Shown piece after piece: positions 6,332 to 28,077 of a stretch of DNA of 64,000 nt. The DNA is from Bacillales bacterium UBA4694. Its GTDB lineage: Bacteria > Bacillota_I > Bacilli_A > RFN20 > CAG-288. Under the pieces are notes generated by a model, which was not told the DNA's origin, searched no databases, and was given only the letters and a program-made list of their open reading frames with translations. The position numbers and the translations under genes were made by a program. The stretch lies in contig DHKM01000002.1 of assembly GCA_002404835.1 (NCBI GenBank), positions 27,866 through 91,865 of the forward strand. The letters run 5' to 3'. Within the stretch, counting starts at the first letter, position 1. Each line of letters begins with the position of its first letter.

Positions 6332-6381
6332 AGACTTATGGATCTCTAGCTATTAGGCATAGAATCCGTAAGTCTTTTTGA
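6332..6381 (+). terminator. Putative terminator after copA
   Basis: AAAAGACTTAtGG...CCgTAAGTCTTTTT stem with a long loop and a trailing T-run. Confidence 0.35.
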
Positions 6382-6581
6382 TTGCAAGAAATCTGTAAGG
6401 AAGAAATCGCTTACATAGAATGGTAGGACAGCCGAATGGAGTGAAAAATCCTTTTTTTTTTACTTTTTTCTTCTTTTTATGTTTTTTTGACTTCTTTTTG
6501 TCGCTGAATCATTGAAATGTGATTTGACTTTACCATTTTAAAGGAATAGTTTATTCATAAATCAAAAAAGGAGGATGATTT

Positions 6582-7331: not shown

Positions 7332-7511
7332 TTTCGATAAAGAGATTCGTCATTTTCTTTATGCGGATTTGGAATTGAATTCTTTAAAGTAATTCTATTT
7401 GCCTATTGTTTGTTTCTTTTCCTTATTCTTTTTTTACCTAAACCAAATTCTATTTCTTTTTATCTTTCGGAAAAAGATTTATAATTACATCCAGAAAGAG
7501 AACGAACAAAT

Positions 7512-8519: not shown

Positions 8520-8562
8520 GGACGAATAACTGAAGAATTTGTTTTGGCTTGTCAGATGAAAA

Positions 8563-8620
8563 AAGGACCACAGGATAAAATCCAATGTTATTGGATCATT
8601 CTGTAAGGTCCTTTTCTTTT
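8563..8620. terminator. Bidirectional terminator between convergent genes
   Basis: AAAAGGACCACAG...CTGTAAGGTCCTTTT long hairpin, with an A-run on one side and a T-run on the other. Confidence 0.45.
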
Positions 8621-11517
8621 TACTTTTCCTTAATTAGGAAATAAGAGGTCATATAATAGACAAATGCGATTCCGGAAATGATACCGGAGACGATACTAAC
8701 TGTTGTCAGGGTGACTTTCCACCATGGCGTAATATCTTCAAGGGTGCTGTCTGGACTGATTCCGTTCATTCCTGCGGATTTGTTGACGATGGTATATAGG
8801 ATTCTATGGGTGCTTTCACGAACTCTCCAGGCAAAGGTAGGGCTGGATTTGTAGGCATCCAACGACTTCTCGGTTCCGCTTCCCATGAAGAGATTGGACC
8901 CGTTCATGAAGCCATCGTTATAAAGCATATAACTGCCACCGTTTGAGACTGCCATATCGGTGATGATGTAACCGGTAAATCCCCACTCTTTGCAAAGAAT
9001 GTTCTGTTGAAGTTGGTTGTGTGCTCCGACCCAACGGCAGCCTACTCGGTTGAAACTTGACATGATTGAACCTGTATGGCCCTTCTTCACTGCCGCTTCA
9101 AATGGAGCCAAGAGAAGCTCTCTTGCTTCCTGCTCGTTGAGCCAGACACTGATACCGTTTCTGTTTGTTTCACAGTCGTTGAAGGCAAAATGTTTTGTAT
9201 GTGTGATAACACCTTTCTTTTGTAAGGCATTGATTTCCGCCACGCAAGCCTGACTTGTCAAAAAACTATCTTCGCTGAAATACTCGTTTGATCTTCCGAT
9301 GAATGGAGTTCTATGAAGATTGACACCAGGAGCATAACTTCCTTCTGTTCCGGATAAACGAATATCTTCAGCAAAGGCATCTCCGATTTTTGAAATGAGC
9401 TCGTTATTGAATGTGCTTGCCCAGATTCCTTCGCTAGGGAAGGCGGAATCTGTCTTTGTCTCGACTACTGCAGTCGGTCCGTCCAAGGCCTTGATGCCAG
9501 GAAGTCCGATTTTCGATAAGGCAATGGTTGCGTTCTGACCGGAAGTCACAAGCCTTGCCTGTTGTCCGAATGACATAGAATCGAGAAGCTCATCCCATTT
9601 CTTGTCATCGTAGGCGATTTCCTTCTCTTCGAAAGATTTCAGGGAAATCAGTTTCAGATCGGTTGGCTGCTCGTATTTTGGCATTTCCGTTTCTGTCTCG
9701 ACGATGGCTTTGTCCGATTTGATGTCGTCTTTCATTTTGTCGGTTTCAATCGTGAAGGATATCGGAGCTTTCGGCCAGGTGCCTGTCCAGTCGTTTCTGG
9801 ACATATAGGTGACTTTGTTGTTTCCTTTTCCTTCGTAGAGATTCATATCGCTGTCATCAAGCTGATTGGTGATTTCCATTCCGGTTGTCTCATCTTTGGA
9901 ATAGGTTGTATGGTCAAGGGTACTTACATGATAGGAATAGACAAGCGAATCCGTTCCATCTGTCTGATATCCTTTTTTCTTGAGAATGTTGTCCGTGGCA
10001 TTATGGGCATCTCTTCCGGCAGTCAGATAATAATCTCCCTCGTCGACGATATAGGTCTTGTATCCGTATGAGTCATAGGATTTCATCTGACTCTTCTGGA
10101 TTTCGATGGTGACCGTTTCTTTTCCTCCGTTGGCCTTCAACACACCTGTCTTCTGATAGCCGACGAGTTCGACACTCGCTTTCTCGACATGGTTGGCTTT
10201 GTCATAATCGGTATAAGGTTTCTGCATGTAGATTTCAACTGTATGTTTGCCGTCCATGTTTCCGATATTGGTGACATCGAGGGATACGAGGAATGAATCA
10301 TCTTTTGCCTCTACCTTATAATTCGAGTATTCGAATGTCGTATAGGAAAGCCCGTAGCCGAACGGGAAAGCGACATCGTTTTCGTAATTGTAGTCTCCGG
10401 CATTTCCTTTCCCCATGATCTTGTCTTCATATCTTGTCTCATAATACCGATATCCAAGATAGATTCCTTCGTTGTAGATTTCATAGGAACGCTGGGTGGA
10501 ATCCAGTTTCAGGGCAGAATAGTTTGTGTAATACTGAGCCAAACTCTTGGAACGATTGAGGCCCCAGCTTGTCATGGCAGGAGAGGAGAAATTGTCTCGG
10601 CAATAGGTATCAGACAATCTTCCTGAAGGATTGTTTTCTCCAATCAACGTTTCGACCACGGCATTCAGTCCATAGCTTCCGACGTTTCCAATCCACAGAA
10701 CGCTATCGACATCGATGTTTTCACGATATAGATAATCCTGTTCGATCGGATTAGATGAATTCAATAAGACGATGATTCGCTTTACTTTTCCTTCTTTCTT
10801 CAGAGAAGTAAGATTTGCAAGTAGATCGAGTTCGCTTTCGGAAAGAGAAAGATAGCTTCCGTCTTCACCGTCGCTCTTGCTTGTCGAAAGATCCTTTCCT
10901 TCGCCGGATTCCCGGGCAATGGTGATAATGGCAGCATCCGAGTAGTTGGCAATACTTTTTTCAAGAGTGGCTTTGACCTTGTCATAGCCAGGCTCATTGA
11001 TCAAATAGGAATTTCCAATGATGGTTCTTCCTTCCCCTTTGAGAGTATTTGTGTATAGCGACTCTGTATCCGGATTGACTTCGATTCCTTTTTCTTTCAG
11101 GATATTAGGAAAAGTCTGATAGGAACTGGAGGATGTCGAACTAGAACCGGATGTGTTGTAATTGAACCGGTAGCTTGCTGTTCCAAGCAGAGTCACTTTG
11201 CTTGTTTTGGATATCGGCAAGGATGCCTCCCCGGTTGAGATCTTACTGTTCTTTAGAAGGACTAGCCCCTCGTTTTCTGCTTCGATGGCCGTGTCCTTGA
11301 AATAGCGTTTGACATCATCTTCCGTTTTGTATGTTGTCTTGAAATATTCGTCTCCGGTATTGTCTTTCCTTGAAGTATCAATATGTAATGCCTTGTTGAT
11401 GGCATTGCTGTTCTTGTCTGCAATCGCTCCTCCTGCAATCGATATGACAAGCAAGGAGGAAAAACCAAGGAAAAGACCATGGGATAAGCGCTTGTATTTG
11501 AAGATTCTCTTATTCAT
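8620..11517 (-). CDS. Glycoside hydrolase family 3 (beta-glucosidase-like), domain-permuted, with a C-terminal TM anchor (paralog 1)
   Basis: Signal peptide. The GH3 C-terminal alpha/beta-sandwich motifs come first (LVLLKN...KVTLLG; AAIITIARESGEG; NPSGRL). Next come YLGYRYYE / FPFGYGLSYTTF and an Fn3-like domain. The TIM-barrel catalytic domain follows (KHFAFNDCETNR...GFTGYIITDM nucleophile region). It ends in a TM helix VSIVSGIISGIAFVYYM. Confidence 0.85.
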   Translation of the reverse strand: MNKRIFKYKRLSHGLFLGFSSLLVISIAGGAIADKNSNAINKALHIDTSRKDNTGDEYFKTTYKTEDDVKRYFKDTAIEAENEGLVLLKNSKISTGEASLPISKTSKVTLLGTASYRFNYNTSGSSSTSSSSYQTFPNILKEKGIEVNPDTESLYTNTLKGEGRTIIGNSYLINEPGYDKVKATLEKSIANYSDAAIITIARESGEGKDLSTSKSDGEDGSYLSLSESELDLLANLTSLKKEGKVKRIIVLLNSSNPIEQDYLYRENIDVDSVLWIGNVGSYGLNAVVETLIGENNPSGRLSDTYCRDNFSSPAMTSWGLNRSKSLAQYYTNYSALKLDSTQRSYEIYNEGIYLGYRYYETRYEDKIMGKGNAGDYNYENDVAFPFGYGLSYTTFEYSNYKVEAKDDSFLVSLDVTNIGNMDGKHTVEIYMQKPYTDYDKANHVEKASVELVGYQKTGVLKANGGKETVTIEIQKSQMKSYDSYGYKTYIVDEGDYYLTAGRDAHNATDNILKKKGYQTDGTDSLVYSYHVSTLDHTTYSKDETTGMEITNQLDDSDMNLYEGKGNNKVTYMSRNDWTGTWPKAPISFTIETDKMKDDIKSDKAIVETETEMPKYEQPTDLKLISLKSFEEKEIAYDDKKWDELLDSMSFGQQARLVTSGQNATIALSKIGLPGIKALDGPTAVVETKTDSAFPSEGIWASTFNNELISKIGDAFAEDIRLSGTEGSYAPGVNLHRTPFIGRSNEYFSEDSFLTSQACVAEINALQKKGVITHTKHFAFNDCETNRNGISVWLNEQEARELLLAPFEAAVKKGHTGSIMSSFNRVGCRWVGAHNQLQQNILCKEWGFTGYIITDMAVSNGGSYMLYNDGFMNGSNLFMGSGTEKSLDAYKSSPTFAWRVRESTHRILYTIVNKSAGMNGISPDSTLEDITPWWKVTLTTVSIVSGIISGIAFVYYMTSYFLIKEK

Positions 11518-11518: not shown

Positions 11519-11950
11519 CTAGACCCTCTTTTCTGTGATTATCTTCACTTCTTCTTTGTTCCTTGTCTTTGGAAGAAAGACGGAAATAAGAGCTGCAACA
11601 AGGGAAATAAGGAAGAACAAAATTGTTATGATGAAAGAAGATGAGAAAGTAGAACCATCGATGGAAGTGAAAACGTTGGCGATATAATTCGCCTGGCTTC
11701 CGATGTAGGAGATGAAACTATATAAAACCAAAAGGAACGCAATGTCATTCAATGGCTGGATCGTATAGAAGAATGTGACAATCTCCAAGATGAAGGCGAT
11801 GATTGCTGGGATTATTGCCGAAAGAGCCAGATCCTTGTTGAATTCGTTTTTCCCAAAGCAGATATAGAGAATGACGGCAACAATACCAAATAGGACACTT
11901 GCCGCTTCAATAAAAAAGCAAAGGGGTTTCGATCTAAAAAATCCTTTCAT
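11519..11950 (-). CDS. Small 4-TM membrane protein, paralog of 62003..62419, coupled to GH3
   Basis: 143 aa with four hydrophobic helices. Its stop lies 1 nt from the GH3 start. It is clearly homologous to the ORF at 62003..62419 (ANVFTSIDGSTFSSSFIITILFF vs SNVAFGVDGNSFDVAFFLFWIF). Confidence 0.55.
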   Translation of the reverse strand: MKGFFRSKPLCFFIEAASVLFGIVAVILYICFGKNEFNKDLALSAIIPAIIAFILEIVTFFYTIQPLNDIAFLLVLYSFISYIGSQANYIANVFTSIDGSTFSSSFIITILFFLISLVAALISVFLPKTRNKEEVKIITEKRV

Positions 11951-11960: not shown

Positions 11961-13211
11961 CTAGTCTTTGTTGAATTCTTTGAATGTAAGAGTTTCGTCC
12001 GTATAGAATTTCAGGCAGTCGATCATGGGAGCCATAGCAGCCATGGTTCCTGTAGAATCTTTTCTTCTGTTGTTGTTTGTGATGAGTTTGATTACGTTCT
12101 CGCCTTTCTTGAGATTCAAGGCGGTGGACAAGGTGAAATCGTTGAATGGTCTCTTATCCGGATTGGAACGGTCGGTGATGACGTTTTTAATTTCGATGGT
12201 TCCGTAGTCAAGATTGGAACCATTGACGTTGACAAGCCAGGAATCGACATAGGAACCATCTGCATTTTCTTTGCCTTCAGTTGAGAATGTCATGTCGAAA
12301 TATTCTGCCGTAAGAGTGGCGATGAAGATGGCATCATTGACTTCTTCTGTTGCTGTGATGTCGAATTCCAAATAAGCGCCATTGTAATAAAGATCGGTGA
12401 TGTATTTGTGGTTGGAACAGTCTGTAGACATAGTGCCGTCCGTCTGGATAAGACCGAGGCCTGTGACATTGCTGGAATAACCATATCCGAGCTTTTCGCC
12501 GATATCGTTTGCTGTGATATCATCTTCCGGTAAGTCGGTCAGTTGTGTATACTCGGCCTCGAATGTATATTTGTTGAACCATCTGGCATAGAGGTCTGCG
12601 TTTTCTTGGTATCTTTGCATCGGTTTGTATTCACTTGCAAAATCTGCGGAGGTATACCAGTTCTTAAAATAATATCCATCTCTGTTAGGGGTTATGGCTT
12701 TGATTCTGCTGTTCTTTTTGACATAGACTTTATAGAAGACATCTTTTTCTGATCCGCTATAGTTCCAATGGAAAGTAACACTTATCGTATTTCCGTCATC
12801 TTCTATCCATTGGGCATAGATCGTGATGTTTCCTGTAATGGCGGAGAAATCATAGACAGTATTTCCTTCTTTGTCTGTGGTCCAGCCACTGAAAAGATAA
12901 CCTTCTCTTGTCGGAGTGTCGATTGGGTTGACATATTTCCCCTTTTCGGCATTCACTTTGACGGAAGTTGAACCAGTATAGTTGAGATCGAAAGTCACAA
13001 CATCATTTTCAACAGGCTCTGGAGTTGGGTCATCCTTTTTGGAGGAGGTTGAATCCTTCTTGGTAGAATCGATATCCGGTTTTGGCTGTTCAGTGCTTTG
13101 GGTTGTATCTTTTGTATTGCTGTTGGATCCTTTATTGGAGACTGTTGTTCCCCCACAGCTAGATAACATCAAAATGGATAGAATCGGTAAGATGAAAAAT
13201 TTTTTTGACAT
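11961..13211 (-). CDS. Lipoprotein with Listeria-Bacteroides (Flg_new) repeats and a C-terminal beta-sandwich/CBM-like domain
   Basis: LMLSSCGG lipobox. Two repeats of the YxFxGWxTx...YxFxxxxxxxxxLYAxW type (YLFSGWTTDKEGNTVYDF...IYAQW; YYFKNWYTSADF...LYARW), then a C-terminal domain of about 200 aa. First gene of the lipoprotein / small-TM / GH3 operon. Confidence 0.7.
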   Translation of the reverse strand: MSKKFFILPILSILMLSSCGGTTVSNKGSNSNTKDTTQSTEQPKPDIDSTKKDSTSSKKDDPTPEPVENDVVTFDLNYTGSTSVKVNAEKGKYVNPIDTPTREGYLFSGWTTDKEGNTVYDFSAITGNITIYAQWIEDDGNTISVTFHWNYSGSEKDVFYKVYVKKNSRIKAITPNRDGYYFKNWYTSADFASEYKPMQRYQENADLYARWFNKYTFEAEYTQLTDLPEDDITANDIGEKLGYGYSSNVTGLGLIQTDGTMSTDCSNHKYITDLYYNGAYLEFDITATEEVNDAIFIATLTAEYFDMTFSTEGKENADGSYVDSWLVNVNGSNLDYGTIEIKNVITDRSNPDKRPFNDFTLSTALNLKKGENVIKLITNNNRRKDSTGTMAAMAPMIDCLKFYTDETLTFKEFNKD

Positions 13212-13290
13212 AATGTTTTTCTCACTTTCTTGTTATTGATAACAATATAATGAATTAGTCTGATAGATAGGTAATATAATTAGGAAAACA

Positions 13291-13328
13291 ACCTCGATTG
13301 GAATAGTTAATTCCCGAGGTTGTTTTCG
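13291..13328 (-). terminator. Terminator after the 1379-aa GH3 gene
   Basis: AACAACCTCG-loop-CGAGGTTGTT hairpin flanked by AAAA/TTTT, directly downstream of the stop at 13330. Confidence 0.5.
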
Positions 13329-13329
13329 C

Positions 13330-16300
13330 TCATTTACTTATCTTCTTCTTGAAGAGAACGGCAACGGCAGCTAAGCCTAATGTTGCAACAGCAGATGTTG
13401 CTGCTACGACAGATCCTCCGCAACCGGAAGACTTCTTGTTCTTCAAGGCTTCGATTTCTTCTTTGAGAGCTTTGATGTCATCGGCATAGTCCTTGGTTTC
13501 CTTGCCTTCCAAGGCAGCAAGTCTAGACTCAAGAGAAGAAACATCCGTCTTGCCTTTGAGGGCTTCGATTTCCTTCTTGAGATCGGCGATTTCCTTGGAA
13601 TAGTCTTCTGTCGGAGTGACGATGCTGTTTCCTTTGACGACCATATGGACCTTGATGGTTGCGGTTGTCTTTGTATCACCGCCACCGAATCCAGGGAAAC
13701 CTGCTTTGTTGGTTTCTGGTTTGGCAAGACCAAACGGGAATCCTCCACCGGAACTCTTCTTGGTGGCTGTTACTTTGATTGTGAAATCAAAAGTTCCGCT
13801 TTCTGTCGGTGTACCTGAAATCTCTCCGTCTTCCTTTACGACGATGCCGTTAGGGGCTTTTCCGCTATCGATGGCATAAACGACTGTATCATATTTTCCA
13901 CCTTCGGTCGTGAAGATGCTGGACTTATATTTAGCTGCGAATTCTTCACCGACTTCCATCGCTTCCATGTCATCGCTTCCTTCTTCCAGTTCGAAAGCAG
14001 AATTGACGGTGATGGAATACTTGGCACTCTTGGTGACATAGTTGTCGATGACACAAGTTACGGTGAACTCGTATTTTCCTTCCTCAGTTGCACTTCCGCT
14101 GATTTCACCGGTCTTCGTGTTGATGGAAAGACCTGTGGGAAGTTTTCCGTCAGAGATGGAATAGGTAGCAAAAGAGTCATCTCCAAGAAGGGTGGCATCT
14201 AATCCTGTGGAAAGTTTGGCATTTTCGTAGGCTTTGATGGTTCCGAGATTACCGCCCTGCAAGGCAAGAGAGGCAAATCCGTTCTGATAGTTGTTGGAAT
14301 TTACGGTAGCATAGATGACGGAATGGGCTACCTTACGTGCATAGTAGTACTGGAGATAGGATTCCTTGTATTCGGCATCGGCGTCGGTCATATCGGCTTT
14401 GTATTTGACTCCGCCTTTTCCGTTTCTCAGAGTGGCATCCCATTCTCCGGAGAGAAGGTCATACCAAGGTTCAGTCTTGTAGACGATACCGTTTCCGGCA
14501 CGGACCATCTGATCGATGGTGGTGCACCATCTCATTCCGAGGAATCCGTCGGTGATCATGAAGCCATGCCATCCCCACTGATTCTGGAGGACACCGGTAT
14601 TAAGATACCAGTTGGACTGGTTGACAATACCCTGGATTCTTCCGTATCCGGACATACCCGCATTGGCACCGCCTTCCTGGATTGCCATCTGGAATTCTTT
14701 GAGTTCGTTCTGACGGATGTTCTGCTCTGACTGCCATGTGTAGAGTGATTGTCCGCCACGGTTTGTTTCCTGGTCATTGAAGGCAAGATGCTTGACCATG
14801 GCATTGCAGCCTCTGGACTGGGCACCTTTGACGACGGCAGCGGCAATATATCCGCCCTGGATACCATCCTGAGAATAGTATTCGTTGTTTCTACCGGAGA
14901 AAGGAGAACGATGCATATCCATACCTGGACCATACCAACCCGTGTTTCCGGTTAGAAGCGCCATCGTACCGACAATCTGGCCGTTGAGGTTGGCAAGCTC
15001 GGTGTTCCATGTGGAAGCGATGATGGTTTCATCTGTCCACTGATACAGATTGTCGAAGCAGTTCGGACCATCCTGATCGATGGATTTCGGTTTTCCGAAG
15101 TCGTCCAAAGCGACAGTGGAAGCTCTGGATTCTGTAGACAAATCACAGATTTCTTCCCAGGTAAGCTGATTCAGGAAGTCTTCGTATTTGGTATCATCGT
15201 AGCTTAAACCATGCAGATCCTTGAATTGGATGGTGACTGTTCTTCCTTCTTTGGATGCGGCTTGTGTCCAATTGGCACATTTGCTGTCGAAGTCCGCTTT
15301 GCTGAAATACCAAGGATCGCTTTCCTTGTCTTCAAGTGCGGTATAGACACGGATTCCGTCGGAAGAAGTATCGACCTGTTTATCCAGTTTATAGGACAAA
15401 CGTTCGGTATCGGTATCCTGCCATCTCTGGTAGACTTCTTTGGTGAAGACAAGGGCATTCTTCTTTTCGGTTCCGCTTCCATCATCTTTCTGGACGGTAA
15501 CTTCCTGTGGATGCTGTGGGAAAGTGGCATCGAAATCAGAACGGCTCATCAGGACTTCAACATCCTTTCCGTCCTGCATCATATCCGCAGTACGGAGCGA
15601 ATTGACTTGGGTCTTTCCGTCTTTTCCAGTTCCGACGTATTTTCCGTTGTCTGTTGTGAACATATTGGAAAGCTCGTTTCCGGAGAAATCATCCAGATGC
15701 TGATGGGCGGTTGCCTTCAAGGTGAAGTCGATTTCGTCGACATCATCTGTTTTGTCTGTCTTGGCATCGATAGAAAGGTCTCTATGAGAAGTGGCCATGG
15801 CACGGATTGTGTATTTGCCGGCATCAAGCTCATAGTCGCCTTTGACGCCATCTTTGTTGGCATCTTTGTAATCCCAGGAGGCAAAATCCTGTACATTGAC
15901 CTCGACGACAATGGTTTCTCTTTCACCCGGCTTCAAAAGACTGGTTTTTCCATAGCCGACAAGATCGTGGACCGACTTTTCGATTCCGCCTTTGTTATAT
16001 GGTGATTTGACATAGATCTGAACGGTCTGCTTGCCTTCGACATCACCGGTGTTCTGGACTTCGACCGGGATGTAAAGCTTCTTGACCTTGGCTGGACTTC
16101 CTTTGGAGGATTCGAAGAGGGATGCTTCGACTTCGTCTCCGAGAGGAGTTTCCAGATTCTCGTCGCGGAAGGCTCCTTTGATGTTCATGCTGAATGTGGT
16201 ATAGCTTAAACCATCGCCGAATCCATAGGCGACATTGTTCTCATACCAATCCTGGGCTTCTTTTCTCTGAGCATCGCTGGTCGCTTTTTCGTATTTGTCT

Positions 16301-17469
16301 TCATAATAGGTCTCATAGTACCGATAACCAAGATAGATATCCTCTTCATAATCGATACCTAAATCAATCCAGTCATTGGAAACAGAACCTTGGACAATCT
16401 GACCGTTTTCGTCATATTGCGGTCTATTGAAGGATAGCTTTCCGTCCGAATCATAATAATAACGATGCGAGGAACCTGTCTGGGAATTGTCGCCGAAATT
16501 CTGCCAGGTCGGATCGGCTGTCAGATCTCTTGGCCATTCATCGACCAGATGTCCGGAAGGATTCACCTGACCATTGAGAATTCTTGCCACAGCATAAAGT
16601 CCATCTTCGCCCGGACGGCCGATATACATGATGGCATTGATGTTCTCATCATCTTTCAGCGAACCGATTTCCATGACGTTGGAAGTGTTAAGAAGAACGG
16701 CAACTTTGTCGAATTTGGATTCGACCATCTTGATAAGATCTTTTTCCTCTTCGGTAAGCATGAGAGCATGCTTGGCAGTATAGGAAGATTCTTCCTGAGA
16801 AGGATCGGCTGCCATATTCCATCCGCCCCCGCCTTGTTCTCCGCCACTGGATTTGGTATAGGTGCCTAATGCCTTGTGGGATGCAACTTCTTCCGGAGTG
16901 GCTTTTTCAGAGGTGACTCTTTCGATGTCTCCGCCTTCGCCAGCATTTCTAGAGAGGACGATGATAGCAGCCTCGTTATATTCCTCCATGGAATTGAGGA
17001 CGGACCCATTGAAATTATTTGCCTGCTTTGTGATGCAGGAACCGCTGCTCATCGGACCAGAAGAGGCGCTGTTTCCCTGATTCAGGTAATGCTGTTCCAA
17101 GGTAGGATTGACTTTGAAGCCTTCGGAACGAAGTGCTTCCGGAAGTGTCAAAGCGGTATTTTTGCTATAGGAACCGCCTCCGACGAGTGCGACATTGTTT
17201 GAACCGAAAACAGAAATTCTTTCGTTTCCTCTTAACGGAAGTGTGCCATCATTCTTTAAAAGAACGTCACCTTCTGCGGCCAATTCAATGTTAAGATCCT
17301 TAGCGGCATCCATGCACTGATCCAATGTGGAATAGTTCGGATAGTATTTGTCTTTTTCACCAGCTTTTGTCTGAAGTGCATTGCCATTTCCGCCGAGCAA
17401 GGCGAGACTTAATAGGCTTAATGTGGAGAGAGAGAAGAGCTTGATTGATCTGTTGCTTCTTTTTTTCAT
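13330..17469 (-). CDS. Giant cell-surface GH3 glycosidase (paralog 2): permuted GH3, two He_PIG Ig-like domains, a coiled-coil stalk and a C-terminal TM anchor
   Basis: Signal peptide. GH3 motifs GYRYYETYYED, GFGDGLSYTTF, KHLAFNDQETNRGG and HGFMITDGF. Two putative Ig (He_PIG) repeats (LPTGLSINTKTGEISGSATEEGKYEFTV; APNGIVVKEDGEISGTPTESGTFDFTI). Heptad region DLKKEIEALKGK...ALKEEIEALKNKK. It ends GCGGSVVAATSAVATLGLAAVAVLFKKKISK. An AGGAG RBS lies 7 nt before the ATG. Confidence 0.85.
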   Translation of the reverse strand: MKKRSNRSIKLFSLSTLSLLSLALLGGNGNALQTKAGEKDKYYPNYSTLDQCMDAAKDLNIELAAEGDVLLKNDGTLPLRGNERISVFGSNNVALVGGGSYSKNTALTLPEALRSEGFKVNPTLEQHYLNQGNSASSGPMSSGSCITKQANNFNGSVLNSMEEYNEAAIIVLSRNAGEGGDIERVTSEKATPEEVASHKALGTYTKSSGGEQGGGGWNMAADPSQEESSYTAKHALMLTEEEKDLIKMVESKFDKVAVLLNTSNVMEIGSLKDDENINAIMYIGRPGEDGLYAVARILNGQVNPSGHLVDEWPRDLTADPTWQNFGDNSQTGSSHRYYYDSDGKLSFNRPQYDENGQIVQGSVSNDWIDLGIDYEEDIYLGYRYYETYYEDKYEKATSDAQRKEAQDWYENNVAYGFGDGLSYTTFSMNIKGAFRDENLETPLGDEVEASLFESSKGSPAKVKKLYIPVEVQNTGDVEGKQTVQIYVKSPYNKGGIEKSVHDLVGYGKTSLLKPGERETIVVEVNVQDFASWDYKDANKDGVKGDYELDAGKYTIRAMATSHRDLSIDAKTDKTDDVDEIDFTLKATAHQHLDDFSGNELSNMFTTDNGKYVGTGKDGKTQVNSLRTADMMQDGKDVEVLMSRSDFDATFPQHPQEVTVQKDDGSGTEKKNALVFTKEVYQRWQDTDTERLSYKLDKQVDTSSDGIRVYTALEDKESDPWYFSKADFDSKCANWTQAASKEGRTVTIQFKDLHGLSYDDTKYEDFLNQLTWEEICDLSTESRASTVALDDFGKPKSIDQDGPNCFDNLYQWTDETIIASTWNTELANLNGQIVGTMALLTGNTGWYGPGMDMHRSPFSGRNNEYYSQDGIQGGYIAAAVVKGAQSRGCNAMVKHLAFNDQETNRGGQSLYTWQSEQNIRQNELKEFQMAIQEGGANAGMSGYGRIQGIVNQSNWYLNTGVLQNQWGWHGFMITDGFLGMRWCTTIDQMVRAGNGIVYKTEPWYDLLSGEWDATLRNGKGGVKYKADMTDADAEYKESYLQYYYARKVAHSVIYATVNSNNYQNGFASLALQGGNLGTIKAYENAKLSTGLDATLLGDDSFATYSISDGKLPTGLSINTKTGEISGSATEEGKYEFTVTCVIDNYVTKSAKYSITVNSAFELEEGSDDMEAMEVGEEFAAKYKSSIFTTEGGKYDTVVYAIDSGKAPNGIVVKEDGEISGTPTESGTFDFTIKVTATKKSSGGGFPFGLAKPETNKAGFPGFGGGDTKTTATIKVHMVVKGNSIVTPTEDYSKEIADLKKEIEALKGKTDVSSLESRLAALEGKETKDYADDIKALKEEIEALKNKKSSGCGGSVVAATSAVATLGLAAVAVLFKKKISK

Positions 17470-17545
17470 TTTTTCTCCTGTCTTTTTCTCTTTTTAACCG
17501 GTATTTGAAGAGAAAAGGTCAGATTCCTTTGGTACTGACTGGCGG

Positions 17546-17574
17546 TATGATACCCCTTACAAATTGGGAGCTCA
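17546..17574 (-). promoter_or_regulatory. Putative promoter of the giant GH3 gene (TTGAGC-17-TATCAT on the minus strand)
   Basis: Reading the minus strand: TTGAGC at 17574..17569, a 17-nt spacer, and TATCAT at 17551..17546, roughly 75 nt upstream of the start codon. Confidence 0.3.
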
Positions 17575-17621
17575 ATGATTCTAGAAATAAAGATTTGTGG
17601 TGGGATATAAAGATTTTCAAA

Positions 17622-17652
17622 AGGGCTGAAATGTAAATTTCTGGGCTGAAAT
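17622..17652. promoter_or_regulatory. Direct repeat pair GGGCTGAAATG x2 with 20-bp periodicity; candidate LytTR response-regulator binding site
   Basis: aGGGCTGAAATGtaaatttctGGGCTGAAATGcagg. Only the 11-12 nt core is repeated. It lies about 50 bp upstream of the putative -35 of the GH3 gene and next to the LytTR regulator gene. Confidence 0.35.
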
Positions 17653-17786
17653 GCAGGAAGGCTGCTTTTAGAATTGACACCAAAAAAGACGCTGATTGTA
17701 CTACCTTGATGAGGGTAAGTAAAGGAGAGTTTAGTACAATTACAGCGCCTCTTTGAAGATTGAAAGAGGTCAAATATAGAAGAAAG

Positions 17787-18518
17787 TCAGTTGATGAGAG
17801 ATGATCTAGTCAGTGACATGTATTCTTCGATGATTTGGTTTCGGTTTGTTCGGGAAAGCGGAATTTCAGTCTGACTTTTTAATATAACGTGTTTTGCATC
17901 GAATTTTTCGATATATTTGTAATTGATGAGAAAACCTTTGTGAACCCGGATGAATCCAAACGGTCTGAGCTGGTTTTCCAGTGAAACAAGAAGCTGACGG
18001 ATTTTGATTGCATCCGGTTTGTCTTGTAGATGCAACAACTGATAGTTGTGGCTTGCTTCGACAAATTCGATATCATCAATGCTGATCAGGGAGGTTTCCG
18101 TTTCGGTCTTGATTTCCAGATAATTGATTTTCCGGTAATTTGGATAGATGTCATTCAGAAAATGGCTGATTGCACTGCTCACATCTTCGATGAAGTTTGT
18201 TTTTCTGATGAATCCGATCGGGTCGAATTCAAAGCAACGGAATACTTTTGATTCGTTTGAAGAAATGAAGACAAGAGAGACCTTTTTGTCTTTTTCTCGA
18301 ATCAATTTGGCCACTTCCGTTCCATCCAAAGGGGACATGATGACATCAAGACAGATCAAATCATATTGTGTGTGTTCCATGGATTCCAAAAGCTTTTCTC
18401 CTTCAGTGAAAGCCTGGATTTCGGATGGTATTTTCTTTTCGTCGAGTATCCCTTTTATGGAATTGGCCTCTATGGAAAGGCTTGTGTTTTCATCATCAAG
18501 CATTGCGATCTTAATCAT
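17787..18518 (-). CDS. LytTR-family two-component response regulator
   Basis: N-terminal receiver domain (MLDDE...DLICLDVIM) and a C-terminal LytTR DNA-binding domain (FIRVHKGFLINYKYIEKF). It overlaps the kinase gene by 8 nt. Confidence 0.8.
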   Translation of the reverse strand: MIKIAMLDDENTSLSIEANSIKGILDEKKIPSEIQAFTEGEKLLESMEHTQYDLICLDVIMSPLDGTEVAKLIREKDKKVSLVFISSNESKVFRCFEFDPIGFIRKTNFIEDVSSAISHFLNDIYPNYRKINYLEIKTETETSLISIDDIEFVEASHNYQLLHLQDKPDAIKIRQLLVSLENQLRPFGFIRVHKGFLINYKYIEKFDAKHVILKSQTEIPLSRTNRNQIIEEYMSLTRSSLIN

Positions 18519-19857
18519 GGTTTTCTCCTTGTTTTTGAAACATCTCTATCATGCCGTCGGAATAGAATTTTCCGTCTTCGATGTAGAAGGTGATATGACC
18601 ATTGTATTTTCTGATCATTCCTTTGATGATTCCGATTCCATAACCATGGCCGTTTGTGTTTTTGGATGAGTTGAATTCCAGTCTTTGTTTGTCGGTGGGG
18701 TTGCAGATGAGGAATCTCAGATAGTTTTTGTCTGCTCTTATTCTTACATCGATACATGGCTTTTTATCTGGGGTTCTTTCGGTTTCTTCCAAAGCATTGT
18801 CGATAAGGTTGGTCAGTAAGGAACAAAGATCGCTGTCCAAGAAAGGGAGAGAAGGTGGGATAGCAACCATGGTCATCATTTCGATATGTCTCATATGAGC
18901 TTTTGTCATCTCAAGATTGAGAATGGAAGAAACGACAGAATTTCCGCAGTCAATGATATGGATGTCTTCGAAAGTTACATCCAATGTTTTTTGGAGATAT
19001 TCTTCTGCTTTGTCATATTGTTTCTCTTTGAGTAGGTTTATGGCATAGGCATAATGGTTTTTGATATCATGCCTTGCCATGCTTGAACGAGTGATGGAAT
19101 CCTGATTCATTTTCAGCATCAAAAGAGCAGACTGGTTCATTTTCGCCTCTGCTTCTGCCTGGATTGTCCTCTGCTGACTTCTTAGAAGAAGATAGAGAAA
19201 AACATAGATTCCGATGTCTATGGCCAGAAGGACAAAAAGGACGAAAATGATGAAGGCGTGATAGGCTGTTGAGGATGAAATGTCAAAATTGCTCTGAACC
19301 ATTGAAATGATAAGAATTCCGAGGAAAATGGAAATATCCAAAATCAAATAGGAAATCGGAATGCAATAAAAATTGTTGATGTTTATATAGCCGATTAAAA
19401 AACCGGAAATAATGGCTAGCAGATAAGGAAGAGACATTAGGGCTTGATAGGCAAAACTGTTAAGGGATAATTTAGCAAGGATGAGGTTGTTATGATGACC
19501 GATTTCTGTAACGACATAGGTGGCAGAGAAAAACAAAATCATTCGAACGAACTTTTTCCGAAAACTCAGTTTATCGGTGATTCCCAGATAGATGAAACCC
19601 GGAATGACCATTGACAAAATAATCAGATAGGGGGTGAACCTTGGCTGATTTAAGGAATAGCTTAGCATGCAAAGAATAGTGATGGATGCAAATAAGATGG
19701 CGAAATTCAGAAAGTCGAAAATTATTTTGCGGATACTTTTCGAATAATTGCCACGGCAAAGTATGGCTGAAAAAGCAATGCAGAAAATCTCAAAAACAAA
19801 AGGGAAACTGTAAAATACCCTGAAGAAATTGACAATATTTTCGGTTAGTTGACCCAT
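18511..19857 (-). CDS. AgrC/ComD-type (HPK10) membrane sensor histidine kinase
   Basis: Six to seven N-terminal TM helices, an H-box ARHDIKNHYAY, and a C-terminal GHKL ATPase (NGHGYGIGIIKGM). Canonical partner of LytTR regulators. Confidence 0.75.
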   Translation of the reverse strand: MGQLTENIVNFFRVFYSFPFVFEIFCIAFSAILCRGNYSKSIRKIIFDFLNFAILFASITILCMLSYSLNQPRFTPYLIILSMVIPGFIYLGITDKLSFRKKFVRMILFFSATYVVTEIGHHNNLILAKLSLNSFAYQALMSLPYLLAIISGFLIGYININNFYCIPISYLILDISIFLGILIISMVQSNFDISSSTAYHAFIIFVLFVLLAIDIGIYVFLYLLLRSQQRTIQAEAEAKMNQSALLMLKMNQDSITRSSMARHDIKNHYAYAINLLKEKQYDKAEEYLQKTLDVTFEDIHIIDCGNSVVSSILNLEMTKAHMRHIEMMTMVAIPPSLPFLDSDLCSLLTNLIDNALEETERTPDKKPCIDVRIRADKNYLRFLICNPTDKQRLEFNSSKNTNGHGYGIGIIKGMIRKYNGHITFYIEDGKFYSDGMIEMFQKQGENHD

Positions 19858-19910
19858 AAATAACCTCTAATAGTCGAATTATAAATGCCAATTCAATCAA
19901 AAACAATAGG

Positions 19911-20720
19911 TCAATCCTTCTTTTTGGCTTTCAGGTAACGCGGTTTTCCTTCCATATCATAGAGGATTTCTTCATCAAAAGAATTGGAGGTCAAATCATC
20001 AAGAAGCTTTGCGACCTTTTTTGCATTGGTTGATTCCAATTCGAAAAAAGCAAGACCATGGGAAGATAAATGTGAGTTAAGCAGCGGAAATATTTTCCGA
20101 TAAGAATCGCATCCGTCTTTTCCGCTGAACAGAGCAAGACTCGGCTCAAATGGAGCATCTACTTCACGTGAATCTTCTTCAATATAAGGTGGGTTGGAAA
20201 TAATGACATCATAGATACAATCGATATTGTAAAGGAAATCTGATTTTATGAATTTGATTTCTTTTTTATTTCCTTTTGCGGATTTTTCAGCCAAAGCCAA
20301 TGCATTATCTGAAATATCACTGGCATGAATTTCCGCTTCTGGGAAAAGAAACTTAAGACTGATGGCAATGAATCCTGATCCAGTGCATAAATCTAGAATC
20401 TTCTTTTGATTCCAATCCTGATTGTTTTTGACATAATCATAAAGGAATTCGATTGTTTCGGTTCTTGGAATCAAGACATTTTCGTTCAGATAGATTTTAT
20501 TTCCTCGGATGATGTCATATCCGGAAAGGTAAACCGCTGGATATCCTGCTTTCAGTTTGTTAAGGATGCTTATGGCTTCTTTAGACGATATCTGATCCAT
20601 ATCTCCATGAATTCCTAAATCGGAAAACGGAAAATGAAAGACATAATCGAACACAGTTCTTATGTCTGCAAGGGGTATTCCTTCTTTGTAGTACAGAGAA
20701 AAAATTTCATTATAAGTCAT
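19911..20720 (-). CDS. prmC: Release-factor glutamine N5-methyltransferase
   Basis: DLCTGSGFIAISL SAM-binding motif and the IISNPPYI catalytic NPPY motif. Immediately downstream of prfA. Confidence 0.85.
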   Translation of the reverse strand: MTYNEIFSLYYKEGIPLADIRTVFDYVFHFPFSDLGIHGDMDQISSKEAISILNKLKAGYPAVYLSGYDIIRGNKIYLNENVLIPRTETIEFLYDYVKNNQDWNQKKILDLCTGSGFIAISLKFLFPEAEIHASDISDNALALAEKSAKGNKKEIKFIKSDFLYNIDCIYDVIISNPPYIEEDSREVDAPFEPSLALFSGKDGCDSYRKIFPLLNSHLSSHGLAFFELESTNAKKVAKLLDDLTSNSFDEEILYDMEGKPRYLKAKKKD

Positions 20721-20770: not shown

Positions 20771-21883
20771 CTACTTCTCGGCTGTAGCAGCCATTTCCTC
20801 CTGGAGTTTCTTGGTTTGTTCCTCCAACAGGTCTTTTTGATTTGCCTCGTTCAAGGCTGTGACCAATTCATCCAAATCACCATTCATGATTTTAGGAAGA
20901 TTCAATGTGCTCCAGCCGATTCTATGATCGGTCACACGGTTTTGAGGATAGTTATAGGTTCTTATTCTTTCGTTTCTTTCCCCAGTACCGACTTTCAGTC
21001 TTCTTTCTCCACCGACTTTCTCTTCTACTTCGGCATCATGCATGGCCTGAAGTTTTGCTTTCAACATGACCATACAGGTTTCCTTGTTGGCAAGCTGGTC
21101 CCTTTCTACCTGGCAGGATACGACAACACCGGTTGGGATATGTGTGATTCTAACAGCTGATTCTGTTTTATTGACGTTCTGTCCGCCGGCACCAGAACTG
21201 TGATAAGTATCGATTCTTAAATCGGCCGGATTGATCTTGATATCGACATGTTCGACTTCTGGCATGACAAGGACAGTGGCTGTGGAGGTCTGGATGCGCC
21301 CATTGGCTTCTGTTACAGGAACTCTCTGGACTCTGTGCGCACCACTCTCGAATTTGAGTTTGGAGTATACTCTCTTTCCTTTGATTTTCAAGGAAATGAG
21401 GGAGTATCCGCCCAACGGCGTTGGGTCGGAATCGAGAATCTCGATTTTCCACCCTTGGCTGTCTGCGTAATGAGAATACATACGGAAAAGATCTCCAGCG
21501 AAGATATTCGCTTCATCTCCACCAGCAGCTCCTCGTATTTCCATGATGATATTCTTGTCATCGTTCTCATCCTTCGGAAGAAGAGCAATCTTGATTTCCT
21601 CTCTTTTCTTCTCAATCTTCGGACCCAGTTCGTCGAAGGTCATTTTCGCCATTTCGCGGATGTCGTCATCTTCGTCTTTCATCATGATTTCGGCATCAGC
21701 TTTATCGTTCATCATTTTTGTCAGATCGTCAAACATGTTCACCGGTTCTTCCAATGTTGCTCTTTCTTTGGATAGCTTTGTCATTGTCGGAATATCCAGT
21801 GTTCCTTCGCTTAAAAGTTTATCGATGTCTCCTAGCCTCTGTTTCATTGCCTTGAGACGTTCTAACATGAAATCTGTTGCCAT
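20771..21883 (-). CDS. prfA: Peptide chain release factor 1
   Basis: GGQ motif (SGAGGQNVNKTESAVRITHIPTG) and the PrfA-type N-terminus MLERLKAMKQRLGD. Confidence 0.9.
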   Translation of the reverse strand: MATDFMLERLKAMKQRLGDIDKLLSEGTLDIPTMTKLSKERATLEEPVNMFDDLTKMMNDKADAEIMMKDEDDDIREMAKMTFDELGPKIEKKREEIKIALLPKDENDDKNIIMEIRGAAGGDEANIFAGDLFRMYSHYADSQGWKIEILDSDPTPLGGYSLISLKIKGKRVYSKLKFESGAHRVQRVPVTEANGRIQTSTATVLVMPEVEHVDIKINPADLRIDTYHSSGAGGQNVNKTESAVRITHIPTGVVVSCQVERDQLANKETCMVMLKAKLQAMHDAEVEEKVGGERRLKVGTGERNERIRTYNYPQNRVTDHRIGWSTLNLPKIMNGDLDELVTALNEANQKDLLEEQTKKLQEEMAATAEK

Positions 21884-22041: not shown

Positions 22042-23565
22042 CTAATGATTTTCGTTCGTCTTTTCCTTGTAGTATTCTTTGATATCATCCATGGATGTCT
22101 TAAGAAGGTCAAGGACGTCTTTTGAAAATGCACCGCATTCCCCTTCTTGAATCTTTTTAAAAGATTCTTCAATAGAAAGATTGTCTTTGAATACGACAAG
22201 ATTGTCAAAGCTGTCGATTAAGGATATCAACTGCGTGGCAAAAGAAATGTTTTTGAGCCCTCTTGGTGAACCTTTTCCATCAATTCGTTCATGGTGGTTC
22301 AGGGCAACGTCATATATGGTTTTATAGAAATCGTTCTTTTCAAAATCCGGCAGGGATTGAATCAAGTTTGCGCCATAGGAAGAATGCATGTCTATTGTCG
22401 ATATTTCCTGTTCGGTCAAATTCTCTTTCTTGTTGAGAATATCAAGAGGGATGAATATTTTGCCGATGTCGTGAACTTTGGCAGCCAGAATAATGGCTTC
22501 TTTTTCTTCTTTGGTCAGCATCTTGCATCCCTCATGAGGGGACTCGAGAATCAGATTCGTAATTGCTTCTACACGGATGAGATGAGAATAAAGATCCGGG
22601 TATTTGATTTTCAAAAGCATATCCAGAAGGGAAAAGAGGAAGACATCGTTCTTATCTTCGGTTTTCTTCAGCAATGTCTGGATAGAACTGTTTTCCTTTG
22701 CTTTGCTATCTGATACAACGGTGTTTCTTTTCTCTTTCGCAATATAAAGATTGGTATCCGCTTTTTCGAAGGATTCCTGTGCTGTTTTTCCTGACGCATT
22801 TGTCACACCGATTGAAACGGTGATTTTGACACTTTGGTGTTTTGGGTAGATGTACCGGCTAAGATGTTCTCTGATGTTGTCTAGGATTTTGATGGTTTCA
22901 TTTTCGTCATTTGTATGTAGAAGGATGACGAATTCATCACCACCATATCGAACGATGATTCCTTTTCCCTTTAAGAATTCTTTTGCGATCTTCACAACGT
23001 TTATGAGGACAATATCTCCGAACATGTGCCCATAAATATCATTGCATCCCTTGAAATTGTCGATGTCCAGAATCGCCACATAGGAAAATGTTTTCCTGTC
23101 TTTTAAATATTCTTCATAATACCGTCTGTTATAGGTGTCCGTTAGAATATCGTAATAGACTTTTTTGAAATAGTTTCCGGCGGTTTCTCCGGAAATCATT
23201 TTCATTTTGATATTTGTGATAAAGGTAGTTGGAAGCTTGAAAATGATTTCAAGAACATAAGGTAGGGATTCGATTTTGATGTATTTGGCATTGACGAGAT
23301 AGTAACGCTCGTTTAGACATTCCAATTTGAATGATTCCTTTTTTGTCTTCATACAGCGCGAAGATACACATTCCTTGCACGGATTTTTCCGATTCCAGAA
23401 GGTATAGCATTCAAAAGGAATGTTCAGCTTTTTTCGAGTCTCTTTTTCTTTCTCTAGACAGTGGATATGTTCTGCACTTAAAACACGAACGGCAAAAAAG
23501 ATTTGCTTTAGGTTTTTGACCAGGTCCATTGCCTCTTCATTTGTGTAATTGGTAACGCTTGACAT
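22042..23565 (-). CDS. Diguanylate cyclase (GGDEF) / HD-GYP phosphodiesterase fusion with a Cys-rich N-terminal domain
   Basis: LDIDNFKGCNDIYGHMFGD...RYGGDEFVILL (GGDEF), then VHDIGKIFIP...ALNHHERIDGKGSPRGL (HD-GYP with GSP in place of GYP). The N-terminal roughly 120 aa has HCLEKE...CYTFWNRKNPCKECVSSRCMK. Confidence 0.8.
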   Translation of the reverse strand: MSSVTNYTNEEAMDLVKNLKQIFFAVRVLSAEHIHCLEKEKETRKKLNIPFECYTFWNRKNPCKECVSSRCMKTKKESFKLECLNERYYLVNAKYIKIESLPYVLEIIFKLPTTFITNIKMKMISGETAGNYFKKVYYDILTDTYNRRYYEEYLKDRKTFSYVAILDIDNFKGCNDIYGHMFGDIVLINVVKIAKEFLKGKGIIVRYGGDEFVILLHTNDENETIKILDNIREHLSRYIYPKHQSVKITVSIGVTNASGKTAQESFEKADTNLYIAKEKRNTVVSDSKAKENSSIQTLLKKTEDKNDVFLFSLLDMLLKIKYPDLYSHLIRVEAITNLILESPHEGCKMLTKEEKEAIILAAKVHDIGKIFIPLDILNKKENLTEQEISTIDMHSSYGANLIQSLPDFEKNDFYKTIYDVALNHHERIDGKGSPRGLKNISFATQLISLIDSFDNLVVFKDNLSIEESFKKIQEGECGAFSKDVLDLLKTSMDDIKEYYKEKTNENH

Positions 23566-27900: not shown

Positions 27901-28077
27901 AGAAAAGAAACCCAGTTCATCTTGGGTCGCATAGGATATTTTCTTCCCATCATCCGAAACACGATAGAGAATTCTATCTTTGCCCTCTTCAAGTCTTTTC
28001 CTGAATTCATTTGCTATCTCTGTTGGAGTGAATGAAGATTCCATTGGCAATTGGGTCTGTTTCTTAGAGAAATACAT
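24937..28077 (-). CDS. SNF2-family ATPase/helicase with a large N-terminal bacterial SNF2-associated region (YwqA-like)
   Basis: C-terminal half: LADDMGLGKTLEMIAF (motif I), DEGQYIAN (motif II, DEGQ variant), TGTPIQNSL, LVFSSFKQALD, QATDRAYRIGQERKVTVYKLV (motif VI). A roughly 550-aa N-terminal region precedes the helicase core. Confidence 0.85.
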   Translation of the reverse strand: MYFSKKQTQLPMESSFTPTEIANEFRKRLEEGKDRILYRVSDDGKKISYATQDELGFFSLAINYKHNIVDCVTPSSFSDTGIINVFASFLMDMDEKMSEEQQLSCYGDYYLQSKLLSDLSETDIDQYYKDKSDLSRFLANLDQTDEMLDKEALSFTFCFHLSIEDNFIETELDANCANGKKKDSVFGHNNVMGDFYFSDRRNKLDSAIKKVFDCYSFLYRRQIYVESRSYYDHDFSADTNVMNEIYDLINAIHEAKDAKSEDHVELFINNIAIHSIQSSPCKIEIDEKEKIICDVDFKSHDFTYFIGRHAASYMEENIMHFYHFQSTKATMLFHFLKDHPDMRSDLFTKEITTALVPKIASDIQVAPSVVAKSMQLINHIELFLSLEDDGIKSETRAFIKGKQVDLETYKNSEPDGFNGFAFEMQKLFLPFNGKLKDEELINQYLGADLRPLKKSATVFISEELKRLKKKPIGKISIIVSGGEQDWFHLNFKSDEYSEDEIEEILSAYKRKKKFFLLKGDYLSLTDSELGEALEHLVSDVDVDLKKLDKKIPLYQALKLKDNSLSVIPDEVMKLFEEIQDYEKVKLNLSPEIESVLRPYQIKGVQWLTSLYAHNLAGILADDMGLGKTLEMIAFLSQDKTKKPTLIISPKSLTYNWEAEFNKWNPNQKVIVLSVDREIRHKLIQNIKPDEDVVYIIPYDSLRIDLDYFKEIYFKNIIIDEGQYIANALSQKAKAIKELKSDHRFALTGTPIQNSLLDLWSIFDFLMPGYFKTFTEFRKNYGKLDITQQDREHLERIVSPFILKRKKTDVLKELPGKTVEITTLSMTKEEQDFYNAYLLKAKKSMAMGNAKKIEILAELTRLRQICVDPATFLEYNKISSKLDYTVHLLKQATGKGHKILVFSSFKQALDHLGQCLTKEKVNYDMITGETPAKRRVEIADDFNTTDSISVMLISLKAGGTGLNLIGADIVIHLDPWWNVASEEQATDRAYRIGQERKVTVYKLVMKSTVEERVISLQEKKKTLSDIIDKDPNDKQKITTEDIQYLLS

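Follow-up and report, generated by a model that had tools for sequence, protein, structure and literature searches.

AgrC/LytTR systems are textbook sensors of quorum peptides and are also drug targets, and what their many peptide-less members sense is an open question. The locus described here raises this question in a specific form. It lies in a stretch of 64,000 nucleotides of contig DHKM01000002.1 (positions 27,866 to 91,865, assembly GCA_002404835.1) of Bacillales bacterium UBA4694; this whole stretch is referred to as the window. On its minus strand the genes of a sensor histidine kinase of 448 aa (18511-19857) and a response regulator of 243 aa (17787-18518) are followed by that of a giant secreted GH3 glycosidase of 1379 aa (13330-17469). 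What does this pair control, and which signal does it receive? Our analysis suggests that it is probably a dedicated two-component switch for a membrane-anchored GH3 cluster: the sensor would activate the GH3 promoter, and catabolite repression would act on top. An earlier note on this DNA had recognized the pair as AgrC/LytTR-type and had placed it next to the GH3 gene, and Pfam domains, gene coordinates and synteny confirm both points. The kinase matches HATPase_c_5 (PF14501, E=1.3e-16), and the regulator combines the domains Response_reg (PF00072, E=1e-12) and LytTR (PF04397, E=1e-16). The two genes share 8 nt (ATGATTAA), where the ATG of the regulator gene runs into the stop codon of the kinase gene, and are translationally coupled.

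The kinase family is rare, with 33 matches among 5.8 billion proteins. The gene order kinase-regulator-giant GH3 is kept in six lineages (L001, L002/L010, L006, L007/L008, L011 and L012, the L numbers denoting related loci), whose kinases are 39-70% identical to that of the window, with 70% in L001 and the low end (39-40%) in L011/L012. Giant GH3 orthologues of 55-91% identity are found directly behind the regulator in L001, L002, L006, L007, L011 and L012, and the genes upstream of the kinase differ, being prmC, AbiEii, MatE or phosphoglucomutase. A wider scan of one genome per species (GTDB species representatives) recovered 78 further loci, nearly all of them from metagenome-assembled genomes (MAGs) of rumen or gut Firmicutes. 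Their best kinase match reaches only 40% identity, and the organism of the window is therefore not among these representatives. A GH3 gene is present in 40 of the 49 loci whose kinase matches strongly; of the nine that lack one, six are contigs that end within 2 kb. Where the kinase matches weakly, only 10 of 36 loci have such a gene. Moreover, a C-terminal transmembrane helix with a basic tail is found in at least 28 of the 32 complete neighbouring GH3 open reading frames (ORFs). One related locus, L024, is binned as Butyrivibrio sp. The gene order is not the same everywhere: in a distant clade of Erysipelotrichaceae/Bacilli MAGs (L062, L073, L074, L077-L079 and L084) it is GH3(-GH3)-regulator-kinase, with the GH3 genes upstream of the two-component system. 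Some loci hold more than one system. The L002 contig (RUG150) carries at 1345-8206 a second pair of LytTR regulator and HATPase_c_5 kinase beside another cluster, which encodes proteins of 413 aa, 968 aa (a GH3) and 148 aa (a membrane protein), and two systems per locus are also seen in L019, L027, L064, L069, L076 and L083.

Evidence that links the regulator to the giant GH3 gene also lies in the 317-bp intergenic region between them (17470-17786). The earlier note had pointed out two copies of a repeat in this region, 20 bp apart, and had proposed them as a LytTR direct-repeat box. The copies are present and exact: the 11-mer GGGCTGAAATG, which reads CATTTCAGCCC on the coding strand, is found at 17623-17633 and 17643-17653, 20 bp from start to start. 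In the whole 64 kb, just two direct repeats are exact over at least 11 nt and spaced by 12-30 bp, compared to a mean of 0.39 in shuffled sequence. What the earlier description had missed is a third site in phase with the two. We refer to the sites, all on the minus strand, as box A (GCATTTCAGCCC, 17643-17654, the distal copy of the earlier note), box B (ACATTTCAGCCC, 17623-17634, its proximal copy, 20 bp from box A) and box C (TCTTTATATCCC, 17602-17613, degenerate, 21 bp from box B). On a weight matrix built from the relatives only, box A scores 14.3 bits and box C 13.1 bits. The pairs A-B (28.2 bits) and B-C (27.1 bits) are the top two pairs in the 64 kb, whereas the next unrelated pair reaches 14.3 bits, and the copies noticed earlier thus rank first among all pairs of the window.

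Leave-one-out scans and a MAFFT alignment show three sites in phase in each of the relatives. The consensus of boxes A-C is yWTTTCrkCCC, at a spacing of 20-21 bp. In the alignment, box A corresponds to GCAGTTCATCCC, GATTTTCGTCCC and TCATTTCGTCCC, and box C to AATCTATATCCC, TCTCTCTGTCCC, GGTTTCTATCCC and GCATTGTGTCCC, and the core of box B is identical in L001, L002, L006, L007 and L011. This core, the 9-mer TTTCAGCCC, is confined to the region upstream of the giant GH3 gene, both in the window and in L001, L002, L005, L006, L007, L008 and L011, and has the same orientation throughout. Synteny and phylogenetic footprinting thus support the earlier proposal of a LytTR box at the GH3 gene. A chance origin of the repeat was rejected, since just one other exact close repeat of at least 11 nt is found in the 64 kb and since the repeat is conserved in the relatives. 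The arrangement also agrees with what is known of LytTR sites, which typically consist of two 9-11-nt repeats separated by 11-13 nt (PMC4847170); the predicted boxes A-C have cores of 9-12 nt, recur after 20 and 21 bp and lie next to a candidate promoter. Copies of the 11-mer with one mismatch are found at 1402, 47132 and 57010. They were considered as further boxes and treated as chance matches, because they are single, lack a phased partner and, in two cases, lie inside genes. A lone box-like site of 13.7 bits (ACATTTCATCCC, 57009-57020, plus strand) is intergenic, upstream of coaX (55871-56731, minus strand); it has the opposite orientation and no phased partner, and is probably due to chance.

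Beyond the syntenic lineages the box sequence drifts in step with the divergence of the regulator. Distant relatives carry pairs of CAGTTCGTG/CCGTTCGTG exactly 21 bp apart, which resemble AlgR sites, and further pairs just past the regulator stop codon are GCAGTTCGTG/ACCGTTCGTG, GCATTTCGTCAC/GCACTTCGTAAT and GCCGTTCGTCC/GCCCGTTCGGG. In the pooled 200-bp stretches behind the regulator stop codon of 14 distant, non-redundant loci, the core TTCGT is found 22 times vs 2.9 expected (7.5-fold enrichment, Poisson 1e-12), and where a locus has two copies, these are exactly 21 bp apart in L015, L016, L018 and L024. L012 and L014 (TTTCGTCCC) bridge this distant motif to the TTTCAGCCC of the window. Because the box sequence shifts with the divergence of the regulator, and because the regulator is the sole DNA-binding protein that is co-inherited with the boxes, we infer that it is the regulator that binds them. 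The motifs also have counterparts among characterized LytTR regulators. The AlgR core CCGTTCGTC (PMC4064291) is close to CCGTTCGTG/CCGTTCGTCC of the distant relatives, and the YpdB motif GGCATTTCAT is close to box A, GCATTTCAGCCC, with which it shares GCATTTCA.

The boxes are set apart from the regulator gene by a terminator-like element, a long hairpin followed by a run of six T (17682-17754, minus strand; RNAfold -28.6 kcal/mol, z=-4.0). Clear hairpin-plus-T-run terminators stand at the equivalent place in L001, L006, L007, L011 and L012, and in several relatives box A itself makes up the 3' arm of this hairpin terminator. The position of this hairpin between the regulator gene and the boxes suggests that the GH3 gene would therefore form a separate, box-dependent transcription unit. 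For its promoter the earlier note had proposed TTGAGC (17570-17575), a 17-nt spacer and TATCAT (17547-17552), on the minus strand. This candidate is present (9/12 matches in a consensus scan) and has an equivalent in L001, TTGATG with a 17-nt spacer and TAACAT; its -10 hexamer TATCAT, however, lies inside a conserved cre-like palindrome, and an alternative -10 hexamer is equally conserved in L001. This alternative, TAGAAT (17578-17583, minus strand), is found 17 nt downstream of box C in a block, CTTTATTTCTAGAAT, which the window shares with L001, and if it is the functional -10 element, box C would occupy the -35 position. The ribosome-binding site listed in the earlier note, AGGAG at 17475-17479 (minus strand), is indeed there, 5 nt before the ATG of the GH3 gene.

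The palindrome resembles a catabolite-responsive element (cre). Its sequence, TTGTAAGGGGTATCA (17548-17562, minus strand), differs from WTGNAANCGNWNNCW by one mismatch, which falls on the central CG. No second match to the pattern TGTAASSSSTWWCA exists in the window, where 0.01 occurrences are expected. At the homologous position a perfect match to the cre consensus is found in L006 (ATGAAAACGCTTGCA) and in L011/L012 (TTGAAACCGCTTACT), and a match with one mismatch in L007. With moderate confidence we propose that the palindrome is a catabolite-repression operator, presumably for a regulator of the CcpA/LacI type. A second triple box with the element TGTAACCGCTT precedes the unit of Flg_new, four-helix and GH3b genes in L011 (14553-14640) and L012 (14581-14670), and a cre-like element follows these second box sets as well. 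Elsewhere in the window a perfect cre match, ATGTAAGCGATTTCT (6402-6416, minus strand), lies between a P-type ATPase gene (3515-6313) and a 249-aa ORF (6582-7331).

The kinase and regulator genes have a candidate promoter of their own, TTGTTT (19901-19906) and TATAAT (19878-19883) with a 17-nt spacer, on the minus strand. A weight-matrix scan for box pairs upstream of the kinase gene found none in the window and none in six relatives. Together with the anatomy of the GH3 promoter this suggests the following course of events. The kinase-regulator operon would be expressed constitutively from its own box-less promoter and would not be autoinduced; because this promoter is box-less, the system is predicted to lack the positive feedback that characterizes the agr, com, blp and pln circuits. 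A signal perceived at the seven-helix membrane domain would lead to phosphorylation of the regulator, whose acidic pocket is formed by D8/D9 and whose presumed phosphoacceptor is D58 in the motif CLDVIM. The phosphorylated regulator would then bind boxes A-C and activate the GH3 promoter. The conserved boxes follow immediately on the regulator terminator and abut the candidate GH3 promoter on its upstream side or overlap with it. Finally, the cre-like palindrome would add a veto by catabolite repression, probably via CcpA, a step we propose with moderate confidence.

Several points weigh against this proposal. Binding, activation and signal are all things that we infer. There is no consistent -35/-10 pair across the relatives, and the distance between box C and the best -10 candidate differs between loci, with 17 nt to TAGAAT in the window and L001 vs 10 nt to GATAAT in L006/L007. 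The cre-like site of the window is mismatched in the central CG, which is normally invariant, and that of L001 likewise has one mismatch. In many of the distant loci a generic test for the best direct repeat was not significant when each locus was taken singly, and this test was replaced by the pooled enrichment of the TTCGT core combined with a test of the 21-bp spacing. Moreover, no second box set is found in the window before the Flg_new/GH3b unit (13212-13329), so that the extent of the regulon is uncertain here. Finally, only 64 kb of the genome are visible, and an unlinked cassette of the agrBD type may exist elsewhere; unlinked pheromone cassettes occur in Clostridium perfringens for VirSR.

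The last point bears on the alternative that survives best, namely that the kinase is a true peptide quorum receptor, that the genes for its pheromone and for processing (either agrBD-like or for a double-glycine peptide with a C39 ABC exporter) lie elsewhere in the genome, and that the GH3 is expressed in a density-dependent manner. The build of the kinase is what one would expect of such a receptor. Hydropathy indicates about seven hydrophobic helices within residues 14-221, and thus the topology of six to seven sensor helices that is typical of peptide receptors; a coiled linker follows, and the H-box RHDIKNH (residues 262-268) stands ahead of the GHKL/HATPase_c_5 ATP-binding domain, a kinase core of the AgrC/ComD type. 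In sequence the kinase has no matching chain in the PDB, but the top PDB match of its AlphaFold2 model (predicted local distance difference test score, pLDDT, 77) in Foldseek is 6e52, the AgrC cytoplasmic module. The inspection was moreover limited to 64 kb of the genome. We nevertheless consider a quorum receptor unlikely, for reasons that lie in the gene content, in the promoters and in the distribution of the module.

As to gene content, Pfam scans took in essentially all window ORFs of at least 150 aa, and NCBIfam was used as well. Among these ORFs neither AgrB (PF04647) nor AgrD (PF05931), and neither a C39 peptidase nor an ATP-binding cassette (ABC) exporter was found, in line with the earlier statement that no pheromone or processing gene is present locally. 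The neighbourhood is one of housekeeping functions, among them dprA, rnhB, a P-type ATPase, a GGDEF/HD-GYP protein, an SNF2 helicase, groEL, mfd, pth and coaX. The 5' neighbour of the kinase gene is prmC (19911-20720, minus strand), itself preceded by prfA (20771-21883, minus strand), and the gap of 53 bp between prmC and the kinase gene is too small for peptide-processing genes. ORFs of at least 20 aa in the 317-bp region behind the regulator gene begin with TTG only and are unconserved. One candidate considered as a hidden peptide or protein, an 84-aa ORF with a TTG start (17519-17773), was rejected: it has no Pfam match, and its conservation in L001 comes in blocks (boxes, TAGAAT and cre) with indels and is not codon-wise. 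Four ORFs of unknown function (57110-57682, 6582-7331, 7512-8519 and 38518-39363) were considered as divergent AgrB proteins and found no support in the Pfam and NCBIfam scans. The picture is the same in the relatives, since no peptide, AgrB or exporter gene stands beside the module in any of seven lineages with differing flanks.

The promoters and the distribution of the module point in the same direction. The kinase operon has no boxes upstream, so that the autoinduction loop of agr, com, blp and pln is missing; the cre-like element points to nutritional control; and several paralogous GH3-linked systems are found on one contig (L002, L019, L027 and L064), as they are in Butyrivibrio proteoclasticus, which has three. 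Of the two signals that the earlier note had offered, quorum or host glycan, the first is thus argued against by the box-less kinase operon, the cre-like element and the paralogous systems, and a link to the substrate is favoured. The premise behind the quorum idea, that HPK10/LytTR pairs normally come with a peptide gene, was an over-generalization, and peptide-less systems of this kind are not in themselves surprising. In Bacillus subtilis, NatK/NatR consists of a small polytopic kinase and a LytTR regulator, has no peptide gene and controls the adjacent operon, which encodes a Na+ ABC exporter. For the switch proposed here, a signal tied to the substrate or product of the enzymes, or to their activity at the membrane, is favoured over a quorum peptide because there are no peptide or exporter genes and no autoinduction loop, because a cre-like element is present and because GH3-linked copies are paralogous (L002, L019, L027, L064 and strain B316 of B. 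proteoclasticus); even so, within the model we put the chances of such a signal at roughly even.

A more specific form of sensing would be that the kinase reads the tail-anchored GH3, the four-helix protein or the lipoprotein of the cluster through intramembrane contacts, following a logic like the flux sensing of BceS-BceAB. The kinase would then be an AgrC-type nutrient or activity sensor that monitors a tail-anchored GH3 or a small membrane protein within the membrane. Circumstances that fit are not lacking: kinases of this family are nearly always found beside GH3s that carry a transmembrane helix at the C-terminus (at least 28 of 32), the juxtamembrane motifs GC[GS]GS of the giant GH3 and PW[WKRQ] of the GH3b type are conserved, the kinase is nearly without extracellular loops according to hydropathy and the AlphaFold2 model, and small polytopic membrane proteins recur in the GH3 clusters. 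All of this is purely circumstantial, however. In the wider family no homology between the small membrane proteins can be detected, and anchoring may merely retain the enzyme at the cell surface. We regard this mode of sensing as quite improbable. If it were true, glycan processing at the cell surface would feed back on the expression of the enzymes, with CcpA as a veto, and the system would be the founding AgrC-type nutrient or activity sensor.

Finally, it is very improbable that the repeats arose by chance or by slippage, or that they serve as operator for another regulator, and that the two-component system controls something else. By chance one would expect about 0.4 exact close repeats of this kind in 64 kb, and one-mismatch copies of the 11-mer do occur at three other places, but those copies have no partner and two of them are inside genes, whereas the boxes have kept their place, phase and orientation in lineages with diverged flanking sequence, and they co-vary with the clade of the regulator, the only DNA-binding protein inherited along with them.

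How does the proposed GH3 switch relate to known systems? Its association of a LytTR regulator with GH3s has been noticed before. In Butyrivibrio proteoclasticus B316, Kelly et al. (2010; PMC2914790) reported LytTR regulators beside secreted GH3s that carry a transmembrane helix at the C-terminus, in the three polysaccharide utilization loci (PULs) PUL7, 21 and 33. By description this is the closest precedent, with the same association of LytTR regulator and tail-anchored secreted GH3s, and the window is a further member from an uncultured rumen-type Firmicute. The B316 account is a one-sentence annotation remark, without kinase type, binding site, cre, distribution or mechanism. A literature search found the association mentioned only by Kelly et al. 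(2010) and found no later characterization.

By its predicted parts the system is an AgrCA-type phosphorelay. Like staphylococcal AgrC/AgrA it combines a polytopic HPK10/HATPase_c_5 kinase, a regulator with receiver and LytTR domains, and direct repeats at a period of about 21 bp ahead of the target promoter. Unlike agrBDCA, the window has no agrB or agrD and no boxes before the kinase operon, it has three sites instead of two, and a glycosidase cluster, in place of RNAIII or toxins, is the putative target. The regulator falls well short of the AgrA cut-off: among the NCBIfam equivalogs AgrA gives 23.8 bits (cut-off 400), BtsR 35 (246) and LytR 37 (375), and neither the kinase nor the regulator nor either of the two GH3s of the window reached the cut-off of any NCBIfam model. 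In a sequence comparison with the PDB the regulator was matched via its receiver domain only. ComD/ComE, BlpH/BlpR and PlnB/PlnCD of streptococci and lactobacilli have the same kinase and regulator classes, and their regulators bind 9-11-nt direct repeats near the promoter, with spacers of about 12 nt (PMC4847170); these systems, however, have a double-glycine peptide gene, a C39 ABC exporter and autoinduction, none of which was found in the window. The system thus does not qualify as a member of the Agr or Com/Blp families, since neither peptide and processing genes nor signs of autoinduction are found and the equivalog scores are too low.

LytTR regulators also serve in metabolic and nutrient sensing, as in AlgZ/AlgR of Pseudomonas and in YpdA/YpdB and BtsS/BtsR of E. 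coli. Their kinases are of other types: LytS, BtsS and YpdA combine 5TM-LytS with His_kinase (PF06580), neither of which is found in the kinase of the window, and AlgZ is of another class. Nor does the system belong to the LytS/BtsS type. The regulators of PULs, hybrid two-component systems in Bacteroides and AraC-type two-component systems or LacI in the Gram-positive PULs (gpPULs) of Firmicutes, belong to different protein families and share the logic, with a sensor beside the glycoside hydrolases that it controls, paralogous copies per genome and catabolite control. In contrast to PULs, the cluster of the window encodes no transporter or solute-binding protein, and its kinase is a putative ligand sensor only. 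A LytTR regulator and a kinase are listed for the Roseburia gpPUL Ros-7 (PMC5320581).

Seen against this background, the locus offers a widely conserved case with a defined output (tail-anchored GH3), a putative operator (the boxes phased at 20-21 bp) and a candidate second input (cre), and it bears on how enzymes that degrade fibre and glycosides are regulated in Gram-positive bacteria of the rumen and gut. To our knowledge, only regulators of the AraC, LacI and YesMN types have been studied for such enzymes in these bacteria. The box motif can moreover be used to predict the regulon in MAGs.

The cluster behind the boxes, all on the minus strand, comprises four genes. The giant GH3 has a signal peptide, a catalytic part in the order GH3_C-Fn3-GH3_N, He_PIG Ig-like domains, a coiled coil and a C-terminal anchor, the Pfam matches being GH3_C, Fn3-like, GH3_N and He_PIG. 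A weak hairpin (13283-13324) separates its gene from that of a Flg_new (Listeria-Bacteroides repeat, PF09479) lipoprotein with the lipobox LSSCGG (11961-13211; Pfam and translation), which is syntenic in L001, L002, L011, L012, L028 and L037. Next comes a membrane protein of 143 aa with four helices in its translation and without a Pfam or NCBIfam family (11519-11950). Phmmer and jackhmmer find homologues of it beside GH3b-type genes in L001, L002 (two copies), L011, L012 (two) and L028; in jackhmmer they are confined to close relatives, with no detectable homology across the wider family. The last gene encodes the second GH3, GH3b, of 965 aa (8620-11517), known from its translation, the NCBIfam comparison and the survey of C-terminal helices. 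It has an N-terminal signal or anchor and, at its C-terminus, a PWW motif, a transmembrane helix and a basic tail, and a strong terminator follows it (about 8559-8615). Both GH3s are domain-permuted compared to the canonical BglX type, with the order GH3_C, Fn3-like, GH3_N. All NCBIfam equivalogs are far below their cut-offs for both enzymes, and thus give no substrate specificity.

The C-termini of the two enzymes have features of their own. That of the giant GH3 (13330-13440) consists of a coiled coil, SSGCGGS, a transmembrane helix and the tail KKKISK, and the motif G-C-[GS]-G-S is kept in five orthologues (L001, L002, L006, L007 and L037). With its invariant Cys the tail resembles a signal for C-terminal sorting or for lipidation; a search with the known C-terminal sorting-domain models (NCBIfam CTERM) gave no significant match to the combination of GCGGS, helix and KKK tail. 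In the GH3b-type enzymes, including those of very distant loci, PW[WKRQ] stands directly before the C-terminal helix and the basic tail (8620-8730 in the window).

Further afield in the window, a protein with GGDEF and HD-GYP (HD_5) domains, a putative turnover enzyme for cyclic di-GMP, is encoded two genes upstream of prfA (22042-23565, minus strand). Several large ORFs have no Pfam family: 28077-29519 (480 aa), 35699-37564 (621 aa) and 43428-47594 (1388 aa) on the minus strand, and 47660-48874 (404 aa) and 48871-53652 (1593 aa) on the plus strand. The last of these holds, at 53391, an exact 12-nt direct repeat, CGATTCAACGGC, whose copies are 24 bp apart.

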